64,000 nucleotides of DNA from Clostridia bacterium (GCA_017461945.1 JAFTSB010000067.1:42781-106780); one strand, 5' to 3'; positions 3,700 to 34,522 are shown, counted from the stretch's first letter. Notes: generated by a model not told the origin, from the letters alone. Numbers and translations: made by a program.

Positions 3700-6438
3700 A
3701 TGGGGCTTTTCCGCAAGTTGTTCGGTTCTTACAGCGACCGACAAATCAAAAAACTGAAAAAGATTGCCGATGAAATCGAGGCCTTGGCTCCCACCTATGC
3801 CGCTATGTCTAACGAGGAGCTGGCCGGCGTGACCGCAAAGCTCAAGCAAAGACTGGCTGATGGAGAAGAGCTTGACGATATTTTGTGTGATGCTTACGCC
3901 GCCATTCGTGAAGCGGACGAGCGCGTGTTGGGCAAGCGCCCCTTTTACGTGCAGTTGTTGGGCGCTATCATTTTGCATCAAGGGCGCATTGCTGAGATGA
4001 AAACCGGTGAAGGTAAAACGCTGGTGGCAACAATGCCTGCCTATCTGAACGCTTTGGCCGGCGAGGGCGTGCACGTCGTCACCGTAAACGACTATCTGGC
4101 TCGCCGTGACAGTGAGGAAATGGGTCGCGTCTACTCCTTTATGGGGCTTTCTACAGGTCTTGTGGTACACGGTCTGTCTCCGGCTGAAAAGCAGGCTGCT
4201 TATGCCGCCGATATTACCTACGGTACCAATAATGAGTTTGGCTTTGACTACCTGCGCGATAACATGGTGGTCTATAAAAAAGACATGGTACAGCGCGGTC
4301 ACGTTTTTGCCATTGTTGACGAGGTGGACTCGATCCTGATCGACGAAGCGCGTACTCCCTTGATCATTTCGGGCGCAGGACAGAAGTCCACAGATCTTTA
4401 TGATCGCACCAATGAGTTGGTTCGCCGTATGACCAAGCTGATCCGCAAGGAAGTGGATAACAAAGAGGAAACTGACGAGGTGGACGCCGACTATCTGGTG
4501 GACGAAAAGGCAAGAAATGCCATTTTGACTCCCAGAGGTGCCAAGCGTGCCGAGGAGTTTTTTGGTATTGAAAACCTCAACGACCCCGAAAACGCCGACC
4601 TCGCCCATCATGTAAAACAAGCGATCCACGCTTATGGTGTCATGAAGCGCGATGTGGATTACGTCGTCAATGAGAACGGTGTTATGATCGTGGATTCCTT
4701 CACCGGCCGTATTATGCCCGGACGCCGCTATTCCAACGGCTTGCATCAGGCGATCGAGGCCAAAGAGGGGGTACAGGTCCAAAAAGAAAATCGCACCCTG
4801 GCTACCATCACCTTCCAGAATTACTTCCGCATGTATCGCAAGCTTTCCGGTATGACGGGCACTGCACTGACCGAGGAGACCGAATTCCGCGAAATCTATG
4901 CTTTGGATGTGGTAGAGGTTCCTACCAATCGTCCCATGATCCGCATTGACCAAAACGATGTGGTCTATAAGAACACCAAGGGCAAATACGATGCCATTGT
5001 GGCGCAGATTGAGGAGTGCCATCGAAAGGGCCAGCCGGTTCTGGTGGGCACCGTCAGCGTTGACAAATCCGAGGAATTGTCTGCACGCTTGAAAAAACAC
5101 GGTATTCCGCATAATGTGCTGAATGCCAAGCATCACGAGCGAGAAGCGGAAATCGTTGCCCAGGCGGGTAAGTTCGGAGCTGTGACCATCTCCACCAATA
5201 TGGCGGGGCGTGGTACTGACATTATGCTGGGTGGCAACTCGGAATTTATGGCCAAAAACGAAATGCGCAAGCAGGGAATTCCTGAGGAGCTGATCGCTAT
5301 GGCCACGGGTACTGCCGATATCGACGATGACGAAATTCGGGAGGCAAGACTCACCTTCCAAAAGCTCAATGAGCATTTCAAGGACCTGATCGCCCCTGAG
5401 GCCGATCGTGTTCGGGAGGCCGGAGGCCTGTATATTTTAGGCACAGAGCGCCACGAGAGCCGTCGCATTGATAACCAGCTCCGCGGTCGTTCCGGCCGCC
5501 AGGGTGACCCCGGCGAATCTCGCTTCTTCCTTTCCTTGGAGGACGATTTGATGCGCTTGTTTGGTGGCGACCGTATGATTAATATGGTGGAAAAGCTGGG
5601 ACTTCCCGAGGATCAGCCGATCAATGCGGGTATCTTGTCCAGCTCGATCGAAAACGCTCAAAAGCGCATTGAGGAAAACAACTTCAAGCGCAGAAAATAC
5701 GTGTTGACCTATGATGACGTGATGAACCAACAACGCAATCTTATCTATGAACAGCGTTTGCAGGTTCTCAACGGTGAGGATATTTCCGACACAATTCTTT
5801 CTATGATGCGTTCTTCTATTGAAGAAACGGTAGCGGCCTATGTAGGAGGCGACGATGGCGCCAACCTGGAGGGGCTAGCGGAACAATACAGCTATCTTTT
5901 GGCAGAAGGTGAGCTTTCTGACGATCACAAACAGAAAGCCGACGATCTTGTCGAGTTCATCTACCAAAAGGCTTTGGATGTTTACAATGGTAAAAAGGAG
6001 TTGTTCGGTGCGGATGTGTTCCCGGAGGTGGAGCGCTCGATCTTGCTGCAAACGGTAGACCGCCATTGGATGGAGCATATCGACACCATGGACGATCTAA
6101 AGGAGAGCATTGGCCTGCAGGCATATGCGCAGCGCGATCCCGTTAACGAGTATCGCCTGCAGGGCGCAGATCTGTTTGACGTTATGGTGGCCGAGATACG
6201 GGCAGAAACCGTTCGCATCATTCTTTCTGCCGTTCCTCGCACGCAGACGGTGCAACGTGTACAGGTTGCCAAGCCCTTGGCAGAAAGCTTTGCCGGCGCT
6301 GCAGGGCAGGAGAAAAAGAAAACCACTGTTGTGGTGCGCAAGGCCGAAAAGGTGGGCAGAAATGATCTTTGCCCCTGCGGCAGCGGAAAGAAATACAAAA
6401 AGTGCTGTGGTGCCCCCGGCAACGGCGGCGAGCAGTAA
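3700..6438 (+). CDS. secA: Preprotein translocase ATPase SecA
   Basis: MKTGEGKT, DEVDSILIDEARTPLIIS, TNMAGRGTDI and C-terminal CPCGSGKKYKKCC. Confidence 0.99.
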   Translation: MGLFRKLFGSYSDRQIKKLKKIADEIEALAPTYAAMSNEELAGVTAKLKQRLADGEELDDILCDAYAAIREADERVLGKRPFYVQLLGAIILHQGRIAEMKTGEGKTLVATMPAYLNALAGEGVHVVTVNDYLARRDSEEMGRVYSFMGLSTGLVVHGLSPAEKQAAYAADITYGTNNEFGFDYLRDNMVVYKKDMVQRGHVFAIVDEVDSILIDEARTPLIISGAGQKSTDLYDRTNELVRRMTKLIRKEVDNKEETDEVDADYLVDEKARNAILTPRGAKRAEEFFGIENLNDPENADLAHHVKQAIHAYGVMKRDVDYVVNENGVMIVDSFTGRIMPGRRYSNGLHQAIEAKEGVQVQKENRTLATITFQNYFRMYRKLSGMTGTALTEETEFREIYALDVVEVPTNRPMIRIDQNDVVYKNTKGKYDAIVAQIEECHRKGQPVLVGTVSVDKSEELSARLKKHGIPHNVLNAKHHEREAEIVAQAGKFGAVTISTNMAGRGTDIMLGGNSEFMAKNEMRKQGIPEELIAMATGTADIDDDEIREARLTFQKLNEHFKDLIAPEADRVREAGGLYILGTERHESRRIDNQLRGRSGRQGDPGESRFFLSLEDDLMRLFGGDRMINMVEKLGLPEDQPINAGILSSSIENAQKRIEENNFKRRKYVLTYDDVMNQQRNLIYEQRLQVLNGEDISDTILSMMRSSIEETVAAYVGGDDGANLEGLAEQYSYLLAEGELSDDHKQKADDLVEFIYQKALDVYNGKKELFGADVFPEVERSILLQTVDRHWMEHIDTMDDLKESIGLQAYAQRDPVNEYRLQGADLFDVMVAEIRAETVRIILSAVPRTQTVQRVQVAKPLAESFAGAAGQEKKKTTVVVRKAEKVGRNDLCPCGSGKKYKKCCGAPGNGGEQ

Positions 6439-27087: not shown

Positions 27088-27507
27088 TTAGAGGCTGTCA
27101 ACGATGCGATGTGCCCAATCCAGACAAGCTTTCTTTTCCTCATCCTTAACGCTGTTAAGGAAGGGAAGGAAGCTGCTCTTTACATAAAAGACCTCGTCCT
27201 TAACGTTAGTTCCGGCCTCGGCCAAAATACCTTTAACGTACTTGGCACCGGCTTCGTTGCCGTCGATAACCAAAGCCACGTTCTGGGCACGAGCCTTGGT
27301 CAGCTCGCGGCAGAACAAGCGAACCTGGTTTTCCAGATCGCCCTTGGTAGCAAGCAGCAGAACAACCAAACGCTCGTTATTGCAGGAATAAGCAGGAGGA
27401 ATAACGTCGGTAGCGTTGATGTCAAGACCAAACTCCTGATGAATCATAGGGGCGAGAGCGGCAACTTTGCCTTTGCCGGTATGAAGAACGCGCATTTTGA
27501 TAGCCAT
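27088..27507 (-). CDS. Hypothetical protein, possible flavodoxin-like fold
   Basis: 139 aa alpha/beta pattern, ggagg SD, own extended -10 promoter. Confidence 0.65.
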   Translation of the reverse strand: MAIKMRVLHTGKGKVAALAPMIHQEFGLDINATDVIPPAYSCNNERLVVLLLATKGDLENQVRLFCRELTKARAQNVALVIDGNEAGAKYVKGILAEAGTNVKDEVFYVKSSFLPFLNSVKDEEKKACLDWAHRIVDSL

Positions 27508-27676
27508 GAAAAAACCTCCAAAATATGTTTAAAATATCATGTAAATATGATCTTATTATAGTATAACATAGCAGGGAAGCATAACGCAAATATTTTTATA
27601 AAAAAAGAATAAAATCGGAGTTTTTAACAGTTTTTTATGGCATTTTTTATTCAAAATGCTTTAATAAACCCTTCTT

Positions 27677-27708
27677 TTTTTTGTTGTTGACTTGTCAACA
27701 ACAAAAAA
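27677..27708. repeat. Perfect 15-bp inverted repeat
   Basis: ttttttgttgttgac-tt-gtcaacaacaaaaaa. Confidence 0.8.
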
Positions 27709-27758
27709 GGGTGCCATTACAATTATTTTAAATAAGTCAAGGTATCAATTGTTTTTCG

Positions 27759-28145
27759 CATTTAAAATTTTTAATAAAAGCCAAAGATGGAATTGTCTAT
27801 TAAAAAAAATAATCAAAGATAATAATAAATATTTTTTATGGAAACAATCCGTGGTCGTTGCAGCAGTTTTTTGTAGAATGAAAAGATTAAATACTTTCAT
27901 TAAAAATTTTAAATAAAAACGATGGATCGTCCATCCGGCAACTTTTTATTGATTGGCGGAAAACGCGTTCGCAAATGGCAATGAAAATTTTTGAACAAAA
28001 CAAGGGAGAGTCCGTTGAAAGAAATTTTAAAAAAGCATATATGATCCGCCACAGCCTTTATAACATTAAAAATTTTCAACGAAAACGATGAACTGTCCAT
28101 AAGATCCATTTTTATTAAACGCATCCAAGCGATCGGCACGCGTTC
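27759..28145. repeat. Degenerate ~37-bp direct repeats in an AT-rich intergenic region
   Basis: Copies at 27898 and 28064 are 31/37 identical; 27979 is 26/37 to 27898; weaker copies at ~27759 and ~27823. Confidence 0.55.
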
Positions 28146-28317
28146 AGAATAAAAGGTATTAAAAGTTCAAAACGCTCCTTGGCTCAGGGGCTATTTATTT
28201 ACCAATGTAGATCAGAAAGAACACTTCGAAACAAACCTCGCTAAAAACACCATTTAACAAAGACATCCGCATTGCAACGCGTTCGATTGATTTATCCCGG
28301 CTTTTTTATCCCCTTTT

Positions 28318-28343
28318 TTATACAAAACTTTGATTTTGTATAA
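28318..28343. other. Palindromic tyrosine-recombinase-type site (candidate dif; attL of the prophage)
   Basis: TTATACAAAA-CTTTGA-TTTTGTATAA: perfect 10-bp arms and 6-bp spacer; AAAA-CTnnnn-TTTT core resembles difSL/difH. Confidence 0.6.
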
Positions 28344-28385
28344 TTTAATACATATTTTAAAAAGGGGTAAGCCCTCCACGTTTAT

Positions 28386-28414
28386 AGTATATCATACTCT
28401 TTTTGTTTTGTCAA
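28386..28414 (-). promoter_or_regulatory. Outward-facing sigmaA promoter at the prophage left end (faces the phage operon in the circle)
   Basis: Minus strand TTGACA-17-TATACT with extended TG; predicted TSS ~28379. Confidence 0.75.
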
Positions 28415-28440
28415 GAAGTAATTTGCGCCAACTGGGTGGG

Positions 28441-28507
28441 GCGAAGGGGCGCTGCACTTGGGTGCCCCCCACTACTGGTGGGGCCCCCAAGTGAGCGCCA
28501 TTTTCGC
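28441..28507. other. GC-rich long hairpin, candidate rolling-circle origin or packaging signal
   Basis: Nested stems gcgaa/ttcgc, ggcgct/agcgcc, cacttggg/cccaagtg and ccccac/gtgggg with a TACTG loop. Confidence 0.5.
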
Positions 28508-28612
28508 AAAGCAAAAAGCCGTAGCGCTTGCGCCACGGCTTCAATTTGCCCTACTCTTAGACTTGCTCCGTTATGGACGGGCTTCGTAAACAAGCCGAAA
28601 GGAGGTGATATT

Positions 28613-28699
28613 ATGCTACTACATCGTATTTGCTATTTTGTCAATGTCCATGGCCAAATGTTCCTTGACATAATAGCATTGCTCGTTGTCGCAAGATAA
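28613..28699 (+). CDS. 28-aa hydrophobic peptide, putative type I toxin
   Basis: MLLHRICYFVNVHGQMFLDIIALLVVAR; AGGAGGTGA SD; 14/28 identical to copy 2 with synonymous changes. Confidence 0.7.
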   Translation: MLLHRICYFVNVHGQMFLDIIALLVVAR

Positions 28700-28723
28700 C
28701 ACGCTCTTTCGGCTTGCCCGTCT

Positions 28724-28752
28724 ATTATACCATAACGGGCAAGTCTTGTCAA
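28724..28752 (-). promoter_or_regulatory. Consensus antisense promoter (putative antitoxin RNA)
   Basis: Minus strand TTGACA-17-TATAAT with extended TG, firing back across the peptide gene. Confidence 0.75.
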
Positions 28753-28937
28753 GAGCCAAGGTAGATACCTCAATCCACCCCTAACCGAATTTGTAGCCGT
28801 GGAAAACGCAAGCGCTTTTTGTTGGCCCGGGGGAGCATCTCGCCGCGCACCTCTCGGTGTCTGCGGCTTCGGTCACCTCGTCTGCGGACTCGGAAAAATG
28901 GCAATTAGGGATGGTGTCCCTGACCCACCCACCCTTG

Positions 28938-29732
28938 TTAGTCGGTGTCGGTTGTGAGCGGTTCCCTTCTCTCTTTGGGCAAGGTCAAAAGGCGGTTGGT
29001 CTGTAGCACCTTCCATCGGTCTGCAACTTCGGTGGGTACGCTTTTATAACGGCCTGCATAGCAGTGGGTATCGTAGGAGCGGAAAAAGGGGTTGATGAAG
29101 CCAACGAGGGTGCGCATATTGTCTTCGGTATTCCCTTCTTCTACTGTCTTGATTTCCTCGGAAATGCTGATGTTACGGCACTTGACCCAGTAGAAGCACA
29201 GAAACTTCTTAAAGTGCATCAAGTTATACACTACGTTAATGCGGCGGCGGATTTCAAGCACGATGTTTTCGGAGCACTGGTCATTGCACACGATATAGCC
29301 ACCGCGCGTGTAGTGTCGAAATAATCGAATGGCTTCGTTAAAGTTCTTCAGCACCAAGGGATTTTTGAAATCAAACTGATTGGCAAATGCACCTATCTCG
29401 TCAATGAAAACCACGGAGCGTGGGACGATACGTTCCCACAAAAGCAAATGCCCTGCTGTGAGAACTTCGGCATACTCCTTGCGGCTGATGCGCAAAGGGA
29501 TAGACGAATATAGCAAGGGCTTTTCCCATCTATCCTTGGGGTGCAAAAGGTTGTGCCATTTCACCTTGCGGCGGTTTTTACGTAGCAACTTCTTTGCCTG
29601 CTGTACCGATTTTAATGACTTCCCCGAGCCAAGGCCGCCAGTATAACATTGAATGGTGTCATAATGGATGATGTAAGGCTTAATGAGCCACACAAGAAAG
29701 ATGATTGTCAGCGCAATGATAAGAAATGCCAT
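28938..29732 (-). CDS. Zot-like / pI morphogenesis ATPase with N-terminal TM helix
   Basis: N-terminal TM, Walker A GGLGSGKS, Walker B VVFIDE, RHY and downstream Q motifs; aggag SD. Confidence 0.88.
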   Translation of the reverse strand: MAFLIIALTIIFLVWLIKPYIIHYDTIQCYTGGLGSGKSLKSVQQAKKLLRKNRRKVKWHNLLHPKDRWEKPLLYSSIPLRISRKEYAEVLTAGHLLLWERIVPRSVVFIDEIGAFANQFDFKNPLVLKNFNEAIRLFRHYTRGGYIVCNDQCSENIVLEIRRRINVVYNLMHFKKFLCFYWVKCRNISISEEIKTVEEGNTEDNMRTLVGFINPFFRSYDTHCYAGRYKSVPTEVADRWKVLQTNRLLTLPKERREPLTTDTD

Positions 29733-29733
29733 A

Positions 29734-30339
29734 TTATCTCCTTCCTCGCCACTCACTACCATAGAATTTATCAAAATCTACAGTATCAGCGGCAACACCG
29801 ATATTTATACCATCCATTCTGACCTCGCCGTCCTCTACCATCCGTTGCCAGTCCAACGGCAACAAACAATACTTGAAAGCGTTAAACCAATCTTTCGAAT
29901 TAAAGACTCGGTCAAGATAACTGGTCATAGTTCCCCACGCATTACGGATAGGCAGAGTCAACCACTCTACGGCGGTTTGGATATTTGACCATAACTTGGG
30001 AAAAACACCGCCAAGATTGTCAAAGAAATGCCGCATATAAGTTATACAGTTATTCATAAAGTCTGTGATGGCCTTGGGCACTTCAGACCATTTTTCAACA
30101 CTAACTTCTTGCCAACTGGGGAAATTAGGCATTAACTCAACATAGCGCGGCACAAACCCTTCCTTGTGATATTCTACATCATCAAGGGTTGGGAAGGTTT
30201 CAAAAAGCACGGCCATACGATTGAGATATTGAGCCGCATTGATGTGATAAGTGCTCACGATCGGCATTGATCCTATCTTTGCAAACAGAGCCGATACCAG
30301 TAATGCGGCACACAAAACGAAAACAAAAAACGTTCTCAT
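29734..30339 (-). CDS. Phage membrane-associated protein (pVI-position)
   Basis: N-terminal hydrophobic segment and amphipathic helices; ATGA-coupled to the upstream ORF; lies directly before pI. Confidence 0.65.
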   Translation of the reverse strand: MRTFFVFVLCAALLVSALFAKIGSMPIVSTYHINAAQYLNRMAVLFETFPTLDDVEYHKEGFVPRYVELMPNFPSWQEVSVEKWSEVPKAITDFMNNCITYMRHFFDNLGGVFPKLWSNIQTAVEWLTLPIRNAWGTMTSYLDRVFNSKDWFNAFKYCLLPLDWQRMVEDGEVRMDGINIGVAADTVDFDKFYGSEWRGRR

Positions 30340-30533
30340 CGTTTCAACCACCCTTTATATTTCATAAAGCGAAGCAAAAAATGGTAAGGCACACACACAA
30401 AGAAATGTACCATCACGGCGGCTACGGCGGTGATGAAGATATAGTAGAAGGTCTTTTCGCCATAGCCTTCGTATAGGCTTAAGTCGCCAAAATGAGGCAT
30501 AATGTACGTATGAAGAATTTCATAAAAGGTCAT
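30336..30533 (-). CDS. Small single-TM phage protein (minor coat candidate)
   Basis: 65 aa, one TM, basic C-terminus, ggaggg SD. Confidence 0.65.
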   Translation of the reverse strand: MTFYEILHTYIMPHFGDLSLYEGYGEKTFYYIFITAVAAVMVHFFVCVPYHFLLRFMKYKGWLKR

Positions 30534-30545
30534 ATACTTCCCTCC

Positions 30546-31496
30546 TTATCCGAAGAAGAATTTGCCACAGATGCCAATCACGAAAGCGGCAACAACGAAC
30601 GTAAACACTTGGACTACTACACCTGCAAGATTGAAACCGAAAACCTCAAAATCAAACATGGTCGATACCGCCCTATAGGGAGCAAATGCAATCTCGCCTA
30701 TAATGTCAAGGAAACTTTCGCTTACATCGTTGCTTTCGCCTTTAGTGACTCCGTTTCTGTACGCAGTATTAACTTGTTCAGCAACATCAGCAAGGCCTGC
30801 GGCCTTTCCTTCGTCAAAGCCTTCATTATAGCCGCTTGGTTCACCATCGTTAAAACCCTCTTCGTACCCGTCATTCCACGCAAAGCCCAAATCTTCCTCA
30901 TCATAATATCCTGCATGTTTTTCAATCCAAAAGATAGGGGGTGTATATGGCATTGAATAGACTCCAACCGTACTGGGTAAAGCGTTCAAATTCATTGAAA
31001 TAGAAGTGTCTAAACCATTACCACCATTGGCATAATAAAGCCATATGGTGCAATGTGCCCCAGCCTTAACCACAGAAGACGAACACTCGTAATTATCATC
31101 ACCGATAAGCCGTATTTCGCTTTCAGTACCATCTAAATTCTCGATATAAACAACAATCTGCCAGTCAAGCATTTCAGAGTCCTCTATTGGGCGATCCGTA
31201 TATTCAACAGTAACACCGAAATATACATCTTGGGTGGTAAACAATTCAAAAGAGCCAAGTTTAATTTCATCAGTTTGGCTTTCGTGATCTATTACCATAT
31301 CAATCACCCCATTTGAGTGAATAACATAATTGCACTCCTGCCTTTCAATAGGAATTTCAGGCATTTCATTCCAAATGATGTGATTTGTATAAATATTTTC
31401 TTCCATTGGGCTAAGATATGTTGCCGATGCCGTAACGGCAAACGCAGAAACCATCAGCACAACCAGAGTCAGCAATACAAACATTCTCTTTTTCAT
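30546..31496 (-). CDS. pIII-like adsorption protein
   Basis: Signal peptide ending ASA, acidic N-terminal domain, GxxxG linker GYEEGFNDG...GYNEGFDEGKAAG, C-terminal TM anchor. Confidence 0.7.
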   Translation of the reverse strand: MKKRMFVLLTLVVLMVSAFAVTASATYLSPMEENIYTNHIIWNEMPEIPIERQECNYVIHSNGVIDMVIDHESQTDEIKLGSFELFTTQDVYFGVTVEYTDRPIEDSEMLDWQIVVYIENLDGTESEIRLIGDDNYECSSSVVKAGAHCTIWLYYANGGNGLDTSISMNLNALPSTVGVYSMPYTPPIFWIEKHAGYYDEEDLGFAWNDGYEEGFNDGEPSGYNEGFDEGKAAGLADVAEQVNTAYRNGVTKGESNDVSESFLDIIGEIAFAPYRAVSTMFDFEVFGFNLAGVVVQVFTFVVAAFVIGICGKFFFG

Positions 31497-31510
31497 TTCT
31501 TTCTCCTTTC

Positions 31511-31547
31511 AAATAAAAACCCCATCCGGCATTGCTGGATGGGGTTT
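31511..31547 (-). terminator. Intrinsic terminator directly after the major coat gene
   Basis: aaaccccatccagc/gccggatggggttt stem plus U run; same position as the terminator after gene VIII in Ff phages. Confidence 0.85.
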
Positions 31548-31551
31548 ATTA

Positions 31552-31776
31552 TCAGCCGCGCAGGTGCTTGATAAAGGCAAAAATGCCCATTACAAGACCA
31601 ATCGCAAGACCAATGCCGCCGACAGTCAGACCAACTTTTGCAATGTCCGAGAGCACAGGCTCGGCTGCTGCAGGGTCAGCATAAATCAAATGCGAAAATG
31701 CCGTTTTAATGCCCTGCGTCATAGGCTCGATGATGCCAGTAAAGCCATCGCCAATCTGTTTAACGATATCGCCCAT
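31552..31776 (-). CDS. Major coat protein candidate (pVIII-like)
   Basis: 74 aa, amphipathic N-terminal half, Gly-rich TM helix, basic C-terminus KHLRG; aaggag SD. Confidence 0.75.
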   Translation of the reverse strand: MGDIVKQIGDGFTGIIEPMTQGIKTAFSHLIYADPAAAEPVLSDIAKVGLTVGGIGLAIGLVMGIFAFIKHLRG

Positions 31777-31778
31777 TA

Positions 31779-31940
31779 TTACTCCTTTCCGACAAGCGCA
31801 AGAAGCAAGCGACGGTCGCTCTTGAACACGGGTTTGATGGGAATATCAAAACCGCGCACGCGCAGAATTAACTGCTCAAAATGTACCTTCTCGCCCGTCT
31901 CCTGATTGTCAAAATCACGGGTTTCAGTATAAAGTTCCAT
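31779..31940 (-). CDS. 53-aa protein, ssDNA-binding (pV-position) candidate, not in the ORF track
   Basis: MELYTETRDFDNQETGEKVHFEQLILRVRGFDIPIKPVFKSDRRLLLALVGKE; aggagg SD; between rep and coat. Confidence 0.65.
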   Translation of the reverse strand: MELYTETRDFDNQETGEKVHFEQLILRVRGFDIPIKPVFKSDRRLLLALVGKE

Positions 31941-31996
31941 ATGCACATACCTCCTTTATGGCTTTATTATAAAGCCATAAATCCGAATATGATATA

Positions 31997-32581
31997 TCAC
32001 TCTAAAATTTCTCCAGTTTCTGTATCGCACGTATTCCACATAGGGCTCTGTGCCAAAGCAACCAATTTCAGCAAGGAATTTGCTTGATAAATGAAGGAAG
32101 GGTGTGTGCGCAAAAATGCCTTGTAGCCAATTTGATTTAAAGCAAGGGATTCAATATCTTCAAGCAGAGTTTCGTTCTTATCTTCTTCGGTCTGCTCTGT
32201 GACCTTTTGAAGCACTTCTTCTAATTCGGCAGGGGCTAAATTAGTATCAAGGTCAACTTGCTTATATTCGGGCTTTTCGGGGTTATCCAAATGGAGCAAA
32301 TATCGCACCGCGCCGTTGGGCTTGGTGGCAAGAGGGGCTTGCACAAATCTATTGTCAAGGCCAAGCCGCTTGGCTATGGTGTACTGAAATTCCCTTTTAT
32401 CCGACATCACAACAAGGTGAAAATGGACTTTTTTGGCCGTTCCATCTTCGTTAATGTCTTGGTCATGTTTTATCATCGCATAACGATAGCCAAAGGCCTT
32501 AAGGCCTGCCCTTACGCTCTCTACGTGTTCCTCATAGAACATGGACGGAAACCACTTTGCACGCGCTCCTCTTTCAGCCAT
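31997..32581 (-). CDS. Rolling-circle replication initiator, HUH superfamily, pMV158 RepB/Rep_2-like
   Basis: HDQD...KKVHFHLVV (HUH motif 2) and YLLH (motif 3 Tyr). Confidence 0.85.
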   Translation of the reverse strand: MAERGARAKWFPSMFYEEHVESVRAGLKAFGYRYAMIKHDQDINEDGTAKKVHFHLVVMSDKREFQYTIAKRLGLDNRFVQAPLATKPNGAVRYLLHLDNPEKPEYKQVDLDTNLAPAELEEVLQKVTEQTEEDKNETLLEDIESLALNQIGYKAFLRTHPSFIYQANSLLKLVALAQSPMWNTCDTETGEILE

Positions 32582-32855
32582 TTCTCGCCACCTCGCTTTC
32601 GTTCACAATTTGTTCATGGACAATGGACAATGGGGGCAGATGGTCGCAGTACATCTGCCCTGCCCACCCTTCCTCTGCAGGGTCAAAATCGTCAACGAAA
32701 ATACCGTAATATGGGTTTTGAGTACATCCAGTTACAATGCGGTGCACTTGTAACCAAGATAGACCAAGGAAACGTGCAACGTCTGCTTGCGAGTAAAACA
32801 ACGCTACTGGTAATTGTGCTTCGGTGCGCTTTTCGTAAATAAGATATGAACGCAT
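32574..32855 (-). CDS. Putative HTH DNA-binding protein, first gene of the phage operon
   Basis: SQADVARFLGLSWLQVHRIV helix-turn-helix-like segment; ggagg SD; overlaps the rep start. Confidence 0.6.
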   Translation of the reverse strand: MRSYLIYEKRTEAQLPVALFYSQADVARFLGLSWLQVHRIVTGCTQNPYYGIFVDDFDPAEEGWAGQMYCDHLPPLSIVHEQIVNESEVARNG

Positions 32856-32886
32856 AAAAAAACCTCCACAGTTTTTACTGTGGAGG
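32856..32886 (-). terminator. Terminator/SD-sequestering hairpin directly before the first phage ATG
   Basis: Minus strand CCTCCACAGT-AAAA-ACTGTGGAGG-TTTTTTT-ATG. Confidence 0.75.
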
Positions 32887-32973
32887 GCTTGCAATCTAAA
32901 AATATAATAAATTATGCCCTATACGGGCACTCGCTCTACCCGCGCGCCTTGCGGCTTTCAAAGCACGGGCGAG

Positions 32974-33079
32974 TACAAAATCAGCATTTTGTGCAAAGAA
33001 GCAAATGTATAGGTAAAAAGCCCTACTGGCTTTTTGCAATCCTTCTTTACACAAAACACACGCTCGATTTTGTATAATT
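32974..33079. other. Two inverted dif-like sites (attR region, folded-attP remnant)
   Basis: TACAAAA-TCAGCA-TTTTGTGCAAAGAAG at 32974-33001 is complementary to CTTCTTTACACAAAA-(11 nt)-TTTTGTA at 33042-33074. Confidence 0.65.
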
Positions 33080-33141
33080 GTATGTATAAATAGATGAGGG
33101 CATGTGCCCCCTTGCTCCCTTGTTATAGCATACCTTTCGAA

Positions 33142-33364
33142 TTGCGCCACGGTTGTCAATTTGCCCTACTCTTAGACTTGCTTCGTCATGGACGAGCTTC
33201 GTAAACAAGCCGAAAAGAGGTGATATCATGCCGTTTAAAACTTTTTGCTACATAATCAATACTCACACCCAAATGATACTTGATATTGTAGCACTAATCG
33301 TTATTGCAAAATAACACGCTCTTTCGGCTTGCCCGTTTATTATACCATAACAGGCATGTCAAGA
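33142..33364 (+). repeat. Type I TA-like module, copy 2
   Basis: Direct repeat of 28528-28754; antisense TGnTATAAT retained, -35 spacer only 12 bp. Confidence 0.8.
33228..33314 (+). CDS. 28-aa hydrophobic peptide, putative type I toxin (not in the ORF track)
   Basis: MPFKTFCYIINTHTQMILDIVALIVIAK; GAGGTGA SD; paralog of 28613-28699. Confidence 0.7.
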   Translation: MPFKTFCYIINTHTQMILDIVALIVIAK

Positions 33365-33391
33365 AATTGTTCCCTTTTGCTTAATGTTATC

Positions 33392-33661
33392 TCAGATGTT
33401 CTTTTTTTCGCCACTATTTTTATACTTTTGGCGCGTAGCCTCGCCGCCACGCAAATGGCGCTCGTTTTTGTTTTTTTGTAAAATATCCTGTACGCGCTCA
33501 AACAAACAACGATTGACCCCTTGCAATTCTACTGTAACGTCTTTATGTACGGTGCTTTTGCTGATGCCAAAATATTGTGCAGCGGCACGAACGGTGCAGC
33601 CGTATTCCACAATATAATTCCCGATCAGCTCGCAGCGCCTTGGTTGACTGAAGTATGCCAT
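33392..33661 (-). CDS. spoIIID: Sporulation transcriptional regulator SpoIIID
   Basis: TVRAAAQYFGISKSTVHKDVT and ERHLRGGEATRQKY. Confidence 0.93.
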   Translation of the reverse strand: MAYFSQPRRCELIGNYIVEYGCTVRAAAQYFGISKSTVHKDVTVELQGVNRCLFERVQDILQKNKNERHLRGGEATRQKYKNSGEKKNI

Positions 33662-33751
33662 GATTCTCTCTTTTCTGTTGAAAAATCAGAAGAAATCTGT
33701 TATACTATATTATGCCAATTACCGCAGATAAAGAACTGAAGGGTTAAAAAT

Positions 33752-34522
33752 ATGATAAAAGAAGAAAACCGCTTTGTTTCCTCCAATATTTTAGAAGGAA
33801 TGACTTCTATTTCTGCCCTCCTTGGGGCGCAGGATGCCGGTGTAAATGATCGCATGATAACCGAGATTCTGTTTGACAAGGCTAAAAAAGCCAAAAAGTC
33901 ACGTGAATATGCTTTTCTTGCCCACAAATGTGCAGAAAAAAATATAAAACTAACCTTGACCGATGCCGAAGCCTTGACAAAGATCTGCATCGGTAATACC
34001 CACGGCGGTATCGTTGCCCTTTGCGGAGAGCGGACACTCCCCTCCCCCTCGCGCAACAATTTGCCCTCAAACGGTTTTTTATGCCTTTTGGAAGGGATTG
34101 AGGATCCCTATAATTTCGGCTATGCACTTCGCTCTCTTTATGCGGCCGGATGCGACGGCATCCTGTTGGGTGAGCGTAACTGGATGAGCGCAGCCGGCGT
34201 TGTTGCCCGCGCCTCGGCTGGTGCTTCAGAGTCTATGCCCATTTGGACCGGTAACACCGAGGACGCCATTTCTTTGCTGAAGGAAATGGGATATCGGATC
34301 GTATGCGCCGGTATACGCGACTCGGTTGGTTTGTACGATGCCGACTTAAAAAAACCTCTATTGCTGGTGGTGGGTGGCGAAAAACGCGGCATTTCTGCCG
34401 ATATGCTTTCCAAGGCCGATCAGATCGTGCGCATTGACTATGGTCGGGAATTCCGCGGTTCCCTTTCTGCCGCATCGGCCGCAACCGTAATGGCGTTTGA
34501 GATTTTAAGACAAAACTCATAA
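33752..34522 (+). CDS. TrmH/SpoU-family RNA methyltransferase
   Basis: HGGIVA, EGIEDPYNFG, VVGGEKRGIS and SLSAASA. Confidence 0.88.
   Translation: MIKEENRFVSSNILEGMTSISALLGAQDAGVNDRMITEILFDKAKKAKKSREYAFLAHKCAEKNIKLTLTDAEALTKICIGNTHGGIVALCGERTLPSPSRNNLPSNGFLCLLEGIEDPYNFGYALRSLYAAGCDGILLGERNWMSAAGVVARASAGASESMPIWTGNTEDAISLLKEMGYRIVCAGIRDSVGLYDADLKKPLLLVVGGEKRGISADMLSKADQIVRIDYGREFRGSLSAASAATVMAFEILRQNS

Follow-up and report, generated by a model that had tools for sequence, protein, structure and literature searches.

Integration of a folded single-stranded phage genome by host Xer recombinases is, to our knowledge, documented mainly for CTXphi and close analogues in proteobacteria. The CTXphi attachment site consists of two inverted sites that lie 90 bp apart, attP1 with a central region of 12 bp and attP2 with one of 5-7 bp (PMC4246890). 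In the available part of that source, these sites are described as functional only when folded in the (+) strand, where XerC alone catalyses the exchange and the bases adjoining the XerC arm set the specificity; replication resolves the product, integration is irreversible, and phage is produced from tandem copies (PMC4246890). Here, we describe a locus of similar design in a 64,000-nt stretch of DNA from a Clostridia bacterium (GCA_017461945.1 JAFTSB010000067.1:42781-106780), hereafter the window, in which positions are counted from its first letter. The locus is a 4.7-kb prophage whose host is a spore-forming gut bacterium, and its insertion site has the properties of a chromosomal dif, at which chromosome dimers are resolved.

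Small filamentous phages are also described from Gram-positive hosts. Propionibacterium B5, Clostridium CAK1 and the Enterocloster prophages are such phages, and the element in the window is likened to them by description. The Enterocloster prophages are flanked by direct repeats according to the available text of PMC10061712, in whose main text both "recombinase" and "dif site" are absent. In the main text of Roux et al. 2019, "dif" and "Xer" do not occur as whole words, supplementary tables being outside the scope. The literature search, from which supplements were likewise excluded, found no paper on an Xer-exploiting or folded-attP phage in a Gram-positive host.

The element at 28346-33079 is read from its sequence as a small filamentous (inovirus-like) prophage without a recombinase of its own. 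Integration of its folded single strand at dif by a host Xer protein is probably the best explanation of the arrangement of its ends, which are composed of the following features.

28346-33079, minus strand: inovirus-like prophage, 4,734 nt, with all seven larger open reading frames (ORFs) on the minus strand
28318-28345, no strand: intact dif at the left junction, presumably regenerated, TTATACAAAA-CTTTGA-TTTTGTATAATT, with a 6-nt central region; the sole perfect copy in the genome
28332-28345, no strand: left copy of the 14-bp direct repeat GATTTTGTATAATT (crossover identity; repeat family D15)
33066-33079, no strand: right copy of the same repeat (family D15)
33042-33079, minus strand: putative hybrid right junction, composed of the phage arm (CTTCTTTACACAAAA on the plus strand), an 11-nt spacer and the shared arm TTTTGTATAATT, as the junction sequence suggests
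32974-33001, minus strand: inner inverted dif-like site with a 6-nt spacer, which gives the complementary strands of the helices P2 and P3 described below (repeat family I4)

The insertion site is a palindrome of 11-6-11 layout, ATACAAAA-N6-TTTTGTAT, whose perfect form is found once in the 2.2-Mb assembly. The earlier note on this DNA had called the site palindromic; this holds for the inner 10 bp of each arm, while the outer bases in this genus are TTTT on the left and AATT on the right. The cumulative GC skew of the contig that carries the site (C43) climbs to 60 kb, is level at 58-72 kb and then drops, and the site is at 71.1 kb, ~11 kb from the maximum. Two large contigs from the same order place the site likewise. 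In G033, a single contig of 2,229,578 bp that represents the whole assembly, the site is exactly at the switch of the skew sign, at 51% of the length. In contig C1 of G063 (3,008,576 bp), it is exactly where the 10-kb GC skew changes from positive to negative, also at 51%.

The dif-type site is present in 10 of 11 loci of relatives (L008-L018), with a variable central hexamer. Six of the relatives' loci show the phage-free order SpoU-spoIIID-site-139-aa gene, the same order as in the window; the empty site, proposed in the earlier note as a check, thus lies between spoIIID and the gene for the 139-aa protein. The intergenic gap at dif is ~5.9 kb in the window versus ~0.8 kb in L012. Of 301 genomes of the order, 84 contain an exact match to the dif-type pattern, almost always as a single copy; a control pattern is matched in 4 of 301. 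The site occurs once in the genome, is unoccupied in the same gene order in relatives, is single-copy in most genomes of the order that have it and is located at the GC-skew switch; with its 11-6-11 arms, it thus behaves as the predicted dif of the terminus.

The left end of the prophage reads ...CCCCTTTTTT-ATACAAAA-CTTTGA-TTTTGTAT-AATT, followed by TAATACATA... At the right end, the sequence is ...GAGTACAAAA-TCAGCA-TTTTGTGCAAAGAAG and, after a further 40 nt, CTTCTTTACACAAAA-CACACGCTCGA-TTTTGTATAATT, followed by GTATGTATAAATAG. The Rep end thus contains two inverted dif-like sites with spacers of 11 nt and 6 nt, and the pI-like end has the intact dif that the earlier note had placed on one side. 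In the 64-kb window, the pattern ACAAAA-N5-12-TTTTGT has 4 matches where 0.19 would be expected; 0 of 100 shuffled sequences have as many as 4, and three of the four matches are at the prophage ends.

On the minus strand, the hybrid junction is AATTATACAAAA^TCGAGCGTGTG-TTTTGTGTAAAGAAG, where ^ marks the likely cleavage point. Tyrosine recombinases cleave between the arm and the central region. With a 6-nt spacer in the intact left site and an 11-nt spacer in the right one, exchange would have to take place on the minus strand (AATTATACAAAA^TC). For all phage genes this is the sense strand, the one that Ff and CTXphi package. Neither of the two phage sites is a proper 11-6-11 site as a duplex, and as duplexes they would be unusable.

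The fold was computed on the minus strand with position 33079 joined to 28346 in silico. Its components are listed below.

28340-28347, minus strand: 5' strand of helix P1 (ATAATTTA on the plus strand), the outer part of the phage dif-like arm (sequence, junction fold)
32908-32915, minus strand: 3' strand of P1 (TAAATTAT on the plus strand), which pairs with 28340-28347 after the ends are joined (junction fold)
32916-32974, minus strand: GC-rich side hairpin, 59 nt, between TTTTGTA and TAATT of the uncleaved strand, the "split arm" (folds)
33015-33035, no strand: apical terminator-like hairpin, AAAAAGCC-CTACT-GGCTTTTT, between the two sites (sequence, fold)
28369-28379, minus strand: one half of a weakly supported outermost stem (AAGCCCTCCAC on the plus strand), formed in the 255-nt fold
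32880-32890, minus strand: the other half of this weakly supported stem (GTGGAGGGCTT on the plus strand), formed in the 255-nt fold

P1, the outer arm, pairs AAATTA with TAATTT, and P2 pairs TACAAAA with TTTTGTA. The central loop has 11 nt on the cleaved strand versus 6 nt on the opposite strand, and its first two nucleotides, TC, pair with GA. P3 has 15 positions, of which 14 are Watson-Crick pairs and one is a T.G wobble on the minus strand. Since the side hairpin splits one strand of the arm, the duplex arm AATTATACAAAA/TTTTGTATAATT would exist only in the fold. The contiguous 181 nt of the minus strand fold with -40.1 kcal/mol (z = -6.68), and none of 200 shuffled sequences is as stable.

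Most of the structure in the earlier note is reproduced by these results. All strings that it quoted were located where it had placed them. The pairing it proposed between 32974-33001 and 33042-33074 has arms of 7/7 and 14/15, the mispair being the wobble, with an internal loop of 6 versus 11 nt, and the complementarity of 28340-28347 with 32908-32915 and the 59-nt insert at 32916-32974 are as it described. Folding of the circular junction, which it had recommended, gives P1, P2 and P3. Its outermost stem is complementary (28369-28379 with 32880-32890) and weaker than implied: this 11-bp stem is present in the 255-nt junction fold, and in the 357-nt context it is displaced by a local hairpin at ~32859-32882.

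Homologous prophages were collected with an alignment of pI-like proteins as the query, which gave 22 loci in genome_contigs and 37 metagenome loci. In 7 of the 22 genome loci, at least two sites of this dif type bracket an element of ~5 kb; in three short contigs, the site on the pI side alone is visible. The inverted sites, whose absence from homologues would have spoken against the earlier note, are present in six homologues (L027, L028, L031, L032, L033 and L036). In each of them a hybrid site has an inverted partner 60-120 nt off, and an intact 6-nt site follows the pI gene. L033 is in a tandem or truncated context, and the other five are cleanly bounded. Equivalents of the apical hairpin, with other sequences, are also present in homologues. 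In the metagenome loci, DNA likeness to the window is confined to coding parts.

Pairing was compared in seven related sequences, the window and the six homologues, in a register anchored by hand on the invariant ACAAAA/TTTTGT motifs and without phylogenetic correction. P2 is paired at all 7 positions in all 7 sequences. Columns 1-7 of P1 are paired in 7/7, with two-sided changes at columns 3, 6 and 7; at column 3, TA is replaced with CG in L028, whose host dif likewise has C. Columns 11-14 of P3 are paired in 7/7 with 2-3 pair types each, and its mismatches, a conserved T.T, recur at column 7 in 4/7 and at column 10 in 5/7. A side hairpin of 29-59 nt is found at the same position of the arm in all seven. 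The spacer lengths, in nt, are 11, 7, 11, 11, 7, 12 and 12 for the cleaved strand and 6, 7, 7, 7, 12, 7 and 6 for the opposite strand.

The position of the crossover is also consistent among the homologues. In the six loci with clean flanks (the window and five homologues), the direct repeats end 1-3 nt past ACAAAA, matching the host dif. The central nucleotides shared with dif are paired in the fold, two in the window, L027, L031 and L036 and one in L028 and L032; in L027 a third shared nucleotide is unpaired. The phage arm mirrors the host arm including the outer AATT, and it tracks the host variant AACTA in L028.

It is likely that a single Xer protein serves this dif; the distribution of recombinase genes supports this and does not prove it. 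Among 26 genomes of the genus, the XerD model TIGR02225 detects one conserved Xer-like gene in 25, with scores of 188-202 bits; the XerD cut-off of 329.6 is reached in none of the 26, and second-best hits are sporadic. The earlier note's expectation of "probably single Xer" agrees with this pattern. The Xer-like protein of this genome, 340 aa on contig C62, is below the NCBIfam cut-offs for XerC, XerD, XerA and XerS. It is about equidistant from the solved structures (XerA 6.9e-29, XerD 8e-29, XerH 2.3e-16). Related proteins with 75-88% identity to it carry the label XerC or tyrosine recombinase in metagenome-assembled genomes (MAGs) of Clostridia, Ruminococcaceae and Oscillospiraceae. A truncated second Xer-like ORF is seen at a contig end (L006). 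Joint use of XerC and XerD, as in the CTXphi type, is not indicated in these genomes.

The following course of integration would fit these observations. The phage would have entered the chromosome at dif through a Xer-type tyrosine recombinase of the host, with its single-stranded genome as the substrate. In the coding-sense circle, the minus strand of the window, the intergenic region from the pI-like end to the Rep end would fold as a forked hairpin. One arm would be the perfect dif-like AATTATACAAAA, whose complement is split by the 59-nt side hairpin (P1 and P2); the centre would be the asymmetric loop, with 11 nt on the cleaved strand versus 6 nt opposite; the other arm would be the imperfect P3, capped by the terminator-like hairpin. 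The recombinase on the perfect arm would cut after AAAA and swap that strand with its equivalent in dif, and the first two central nucleotides (TC), common to dif and paired in the fold, may stabilise the ligation. Replication would then turn the pseudo-Holliday junction into a double-stranded prophage, with an intact dif on the pI side (28318-28345) and a dead hybrid with an 11-nt spacer on the Rep side (33042-33079). As neither phage site is a proper 11-6-11 site as a duplex, the insertion should be stable. We infer the identity of the packaged strand and of the recombinase, the exchange of a single strand, its resolution by replication and its irreversibility.

The CTXphi-style reading of the earlier note is thus supported in silico by the lack of an integrase match, the dif target, the paired inverted sites in homologues and the compensatory changes. 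On balance, a clade of gut Clostridia inoviruses appears to possess a CTXphi-like single-stranded attP that is aimed at an uncharacterised near-palindromic dif and served by one Xer-type recombinase, with a split catalytic arm and mismatches at fixed positions of the partner arm.

Several observations weigh against integration of the folded strand. Neither a circle nor an empty site is seen in any read or contig of four sequencing runs (X2, X3, X5 and X7); integrated junctions are bridged by contigs in X2 and X3 only. The junction-specific outer helix is found in just 3 of 8 loci (the window and seven homologues). The same 181-nt region folds with -36.6 kcal/mol (z = -5.95) on the plus strand, and among the seven sequences the sense strand is the more stable in 4 and the antisense strand in 3, with no consistent bias. 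Both sites are self-palindromic, so that local alternative folds are possible. When the seven regions were aligned with MAFFT, RNAalifold found P1 and not P2 or P3, preferring a local palindromic hairpin at the inner site; its covariation term of +0.41 gives no support, the variable spacers having been misaligned by MAFFT. The covariation table therefore depends on the hand-anchored register, and of the covariation expected in the earlier note, the compensatory changes of P1 and P3 stand in that register and the automated alignment does not reproduce them for P2 and P3. In L033, the one central nucleotide common with the adjacent dif is unpaired in the fold. L038 is a variant with a single 7-nt-spacer site, a distant P1 partner and no clear inner site. 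Sites of the ACAAAA/TTTTGT type, with at most one mismatch, were found in none of the 37 metagenome loci, so the sample is seven related sequences. The family scan of the prophage covered ORFs of at least 60 aa, and the assembly is 85% complete, so that a second Xer could be missed.

If integration proceeded instead through a duplex attP, similar to that of VGJphi or TLCphi, the replicative form would recombine via the single site at 33042-33079 by one or two exchanges, and the inner site and hairpins would have other purposes. Double-stranded sites of these types are established (PMC4246890, available part). The junction sequences alone permit a crossover anywhere within the 14-bp identity, and related phages use other modules: another palindrome in L025, a single 7-nt-spacer site in L038 and 7-nt spacers in both sites of L027. 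However, the spacer of the recombined site is 11-12 nt in five of the seven sequences, where a central region of 6-7 bp would be expected; it is 7 nt in L027 and L036, which could have a site of this type. With 11-12 nt between them, the two arms would be rotated against each other by roughly half a turn of the helix relative to what a tyrosine recombinase dimer requires. A duplex site would also leave unexplained why the inverted partner is conserved, why P1 and P3 covary and why a hairpin splits the arm in 7/7, and we regard a duplex attP as unlikely.

The forked hairpin could chiefly be a packaging signal or a minus-strand origin, or both, with the dif-like motifs incidental or secondary and integration achieved otherwise, by an integrase in trans, homologous recombination or the HUH Rep. 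In filamentous phages such as Ff, long hairpins of the intergenic region serve in packaging and in synthesis of the complementary strand. Such functions could fall to the GC-rich side hairpin and to the apical one here, the packaging signals of integrative Xanthomonas phages are short GC-rich hairpins in the available text of 10.1101/2023.12.30.573655, and four phage-type integrases are encoded elsewhere in the genome. A dual role of the sub-hairpins would be compatible with integration of the folded strand. Incidental motifs would hardly be concentrated at the element ends as three of the four window matches are, nor would the phage arm copy the host arm down to AATT and AACTA or the crossover fall at the canonical cleavage position; such an account is quite improbable. 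Least probable of all is that the inverted sites are scars of successive dif integrations in a decayed remnant. A partial, older module just outside the right junction (~33146-33360), the tandem or duplicated ends in L033 and L031, and the lack of a circular form in the four runs would suit this account. Against it, all seven ORFs are open, and scars would not preserve the same spacing, split arm and compensatory changes across species.

The phage body is consistent with an inovirus. It has a pI-type ATPase, small hydrophobic coat-like ORFs, a rolling-circle Rep, a small genome and genes on one strand. The coat assignments are based on size and hydrophobicity only. The ORFs, all on the minus strand, are as follows.

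28938-29774, minus strand: pI/Zot-like assembly ATPase with the P-loop GGLGSGKS (Pfam Zot, E 0.0081, 16.1 bits, cut-off of 20.3 not reached; phrog_197, E 2.5e-4)
29734-30351, minus strand: 205-aa ORF without a family match (Pfam, PHROGs)
30336-30533, minus strand: 65-aa hydrophobic ORF without a match; a pVI-like role is suggested by position and size only
30546-31496, minus strand: 316-aa ORF with an N-terminal signal-like and a C-terminal hydrophobic segment, possibly pIII-like; no family match
31552-31776, minus strand: 74-aa ORF with a C-terminal hydrophobic helix and a basic tail, possibly major-coat-like from its translation
31997-32581, minus strand: rolling-circle replication initiator Rep_OBD (PF01719; E 5.5e-12, 46.4 bits, cut-off 24.6)
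32574-32894, minus strand: 106-aa ORF with a possible helix-turn-helix (HTH_Tnp_ISL3, E 0.0062, below the cut-off); the ATG at 32855 is the likelier start

The name "Zot" for the pI-like protein carries no implication of toxicity here. None of the seven ORFs matches an integrase family in Pfam or PHROGs, or in NCBIfam for Rep and the pI-like protein, which were the two compared with that database. The genome has six PF00589 hits, every one on contigs other than that of the prophage. No Rfam family scores above its gathering threshold in 27500-33800.

The pI-like protein has 519 relatives at E <=1e-5, many of them on contigs of 4.5-6 kb; identity is 83-88% for the best, whose contigs are 2.0-5.0 kb long. 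Close phage relatives were absent from viral_contigs and genome_contigs when the single protein was the query, and from viral_contigs when the alignment was. A pI relative is present in 3 of 401 genomes of the order, including this genome. The DNA of the phage body has no match in 40 other genomes searched, in which only the flanks matched. A probable second filamentous prophage, with an integrase of its own, is found on contig C31 of G000 at ~62.5-68.5 kb (L005, L023), where a few kb separate a second pI/Zot-like gene (28% identical) from a Rep-like ORF and a tyrosine integrase of 291 aa.

Two copies of a module of ~205-230 nt, a family 81% identical overall, are located at 28527-28755, within the prophage, and at 33146-33360, just past the right junction. 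Their untranslated flanks are more alike than the coding part. Each includes a peptide gene.

28613-28699, plus strand: gene for a 28-aa hydrophobic peptide, antisense to the phage genes, in a conserved structured module (repeat families D1 and I3)
33228-33314: gene for a 28-aa hydrophobic peptide, the outside copy

The two peptides are 59% identical over 22 aligned residues. In both copies, pairing is possible between the ribosome-binding region and bases immediately downstream of the stop codon, an arrangement that recalls type I toxin-antitoxin loci. A similar peptide follows the pI gene in a related phage contig, L046. The outside copy, which was not found in 11 loci of relatives, may be a leftover of an earlier phage at dif, or may be chromosomal, the flanks of relatives being too divergent for a distinction.

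Other observations concern the surroundings and the distribution of dif. At 27758-28116, 200-560 nt to the left of dif, four dispersed copies of an A/T-rich motif (CATTAAAAATTTT..AA..AAAA) are 81-139 nt apart, some followed by a short palindrome, and similar repeats adjoin dif in G002 and G013. Six genomes, G026, G174, G221, G227, G324 and G355, have the dif-type palindrome in two exact copies and may hold elements flanked by a pair of intact sites. Many metagenome contigs from X2, X3, X5 and X7, including one of 4,652 nt from X7, match just the ~34-43-nt dif core (28303-28345) and diverge on both sides. As only the core is shared, it should be carried by other community members or other phages.

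Relatives of the phage use other sites as well. In L030 (2109 and 9131), a family relative is bounded by a 23-bp repeat resembling the 3' end of a tRNA gene, which suggests that integration modules have been swapped within this phage family. In L025 (150-480 and 6290-6623), a related prophage in an Acutalibacteraceae MAG lies by another long palindrome, GATTTCGTAAAA-TGCAGC-TTTTACGAAATC; the flanking repeat spans the whole central region, and the far-end site is without a second arm, so it is more TLCphi-like (double-stranded). A distant pI relative, L044, is a circular-looking contig labelled Bacilli, with a 77-nt terminal overlap and the sequence ...TACATAA-CAAATAAA-TTATGTAAACT at 4572-4593. 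Its right arm presumably resembles the Bacillus-type XerD arm, and it may be another Xer-exploiting phage aimed at a canonical dif.

If integration of the folded strand at this dif is correct, the hijacking of Xer by folded single-stranded DNA is ancient or convergent and not a peculiarity of Vibrio, and it works with one recombinase. A Gram-positive example, on a palindromic dif with a single recombinase, would show the strategy to be general, and it would offer a simple one-protein system for a tyrosine recombinase on a forked single-stranded substrate. It would also define dif for a large uncultured group of gut Clostridia, the 84 of 301 genomes with an exact match, and explain by what route the many integrase-less metagenome inoviruses with "non-canonical att" sites turn into prophages. 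The split arm also points to a way in which a phage may conceal its recombination site while in duplex form.

Among known systems, integron attC sites are comparable in that IntI acts on a folded bottom strand by one exchange, resolved by replication, with fixed unpaired bases; both the recombinase and the element differ from those here. The single-Xer systems XerH/difH, XerS/difSL and archaeal XerA/dif use one recombinase, of ~340-360 aa in the bacterial ones, and their sites resemble the site here in having AAAA and TTTT at the inner ends of the arms, next to the spacer. The left arm of difH is AGTTATGAAAA (PMC5357621, available part), whose counterpart here is AATTATACAAAA. In the same text, xerS and xerH adjoin their sites (PMC5357621), whereas here the gene is on C62 and dif on C43. 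The IMEXs (integrative mobile elements exploiting Xer) of the VGJphi and TLCphi types share with the prophage the use of host Xer at dif by filamentous or satellite phages (PMC4246890 and PMC5357621, available parts). They have a single duplex site of 28-29 bp and can be excised, in contrast to the 11-nt spacer and inverted partner here; the relatives L025 and L038 may be closer to these types.

The nearest likeness is with attP(+) of CTXphi from Vibrio cholerae, the type that also includes RS1, Ypfphi and CUS-1phi, as far as the available descriptions go. The host here is a sporulating Clostridia bacterium and not a gamma-proteobacterium, and its dif has another sequence, is nearly palindromic and apparently employs one Xer-like recombinase instead of XerC and XerD. 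The loop between the sites is ~40 nt, not 90, and the genome is 4.7 kb with a Rep_OBD-type Rep. The complement of the catalytic arm is broken by a hairpin of 29-59 nt, and the second arm has conserved mismatches; this split arm and the fixed positions of the mismatches are features not described for CTXphi. Both are integrase-less filamentous phages at dif with an inverted pair of dif-like sites, the long spacer being 12 bp in CTXphi and 11-12 nt here and the short one 5-7 bp and 6-7 nt. In CTXphi, the (+) strand folds into one site, exchange occurs at the border of arm and central region, and adjoining bases determine specificity; the junctions here fit the same scheme. In both, one end bears a restored, intact dif and the opposite end is a dead site, for the prophage here as its junctions suggest.

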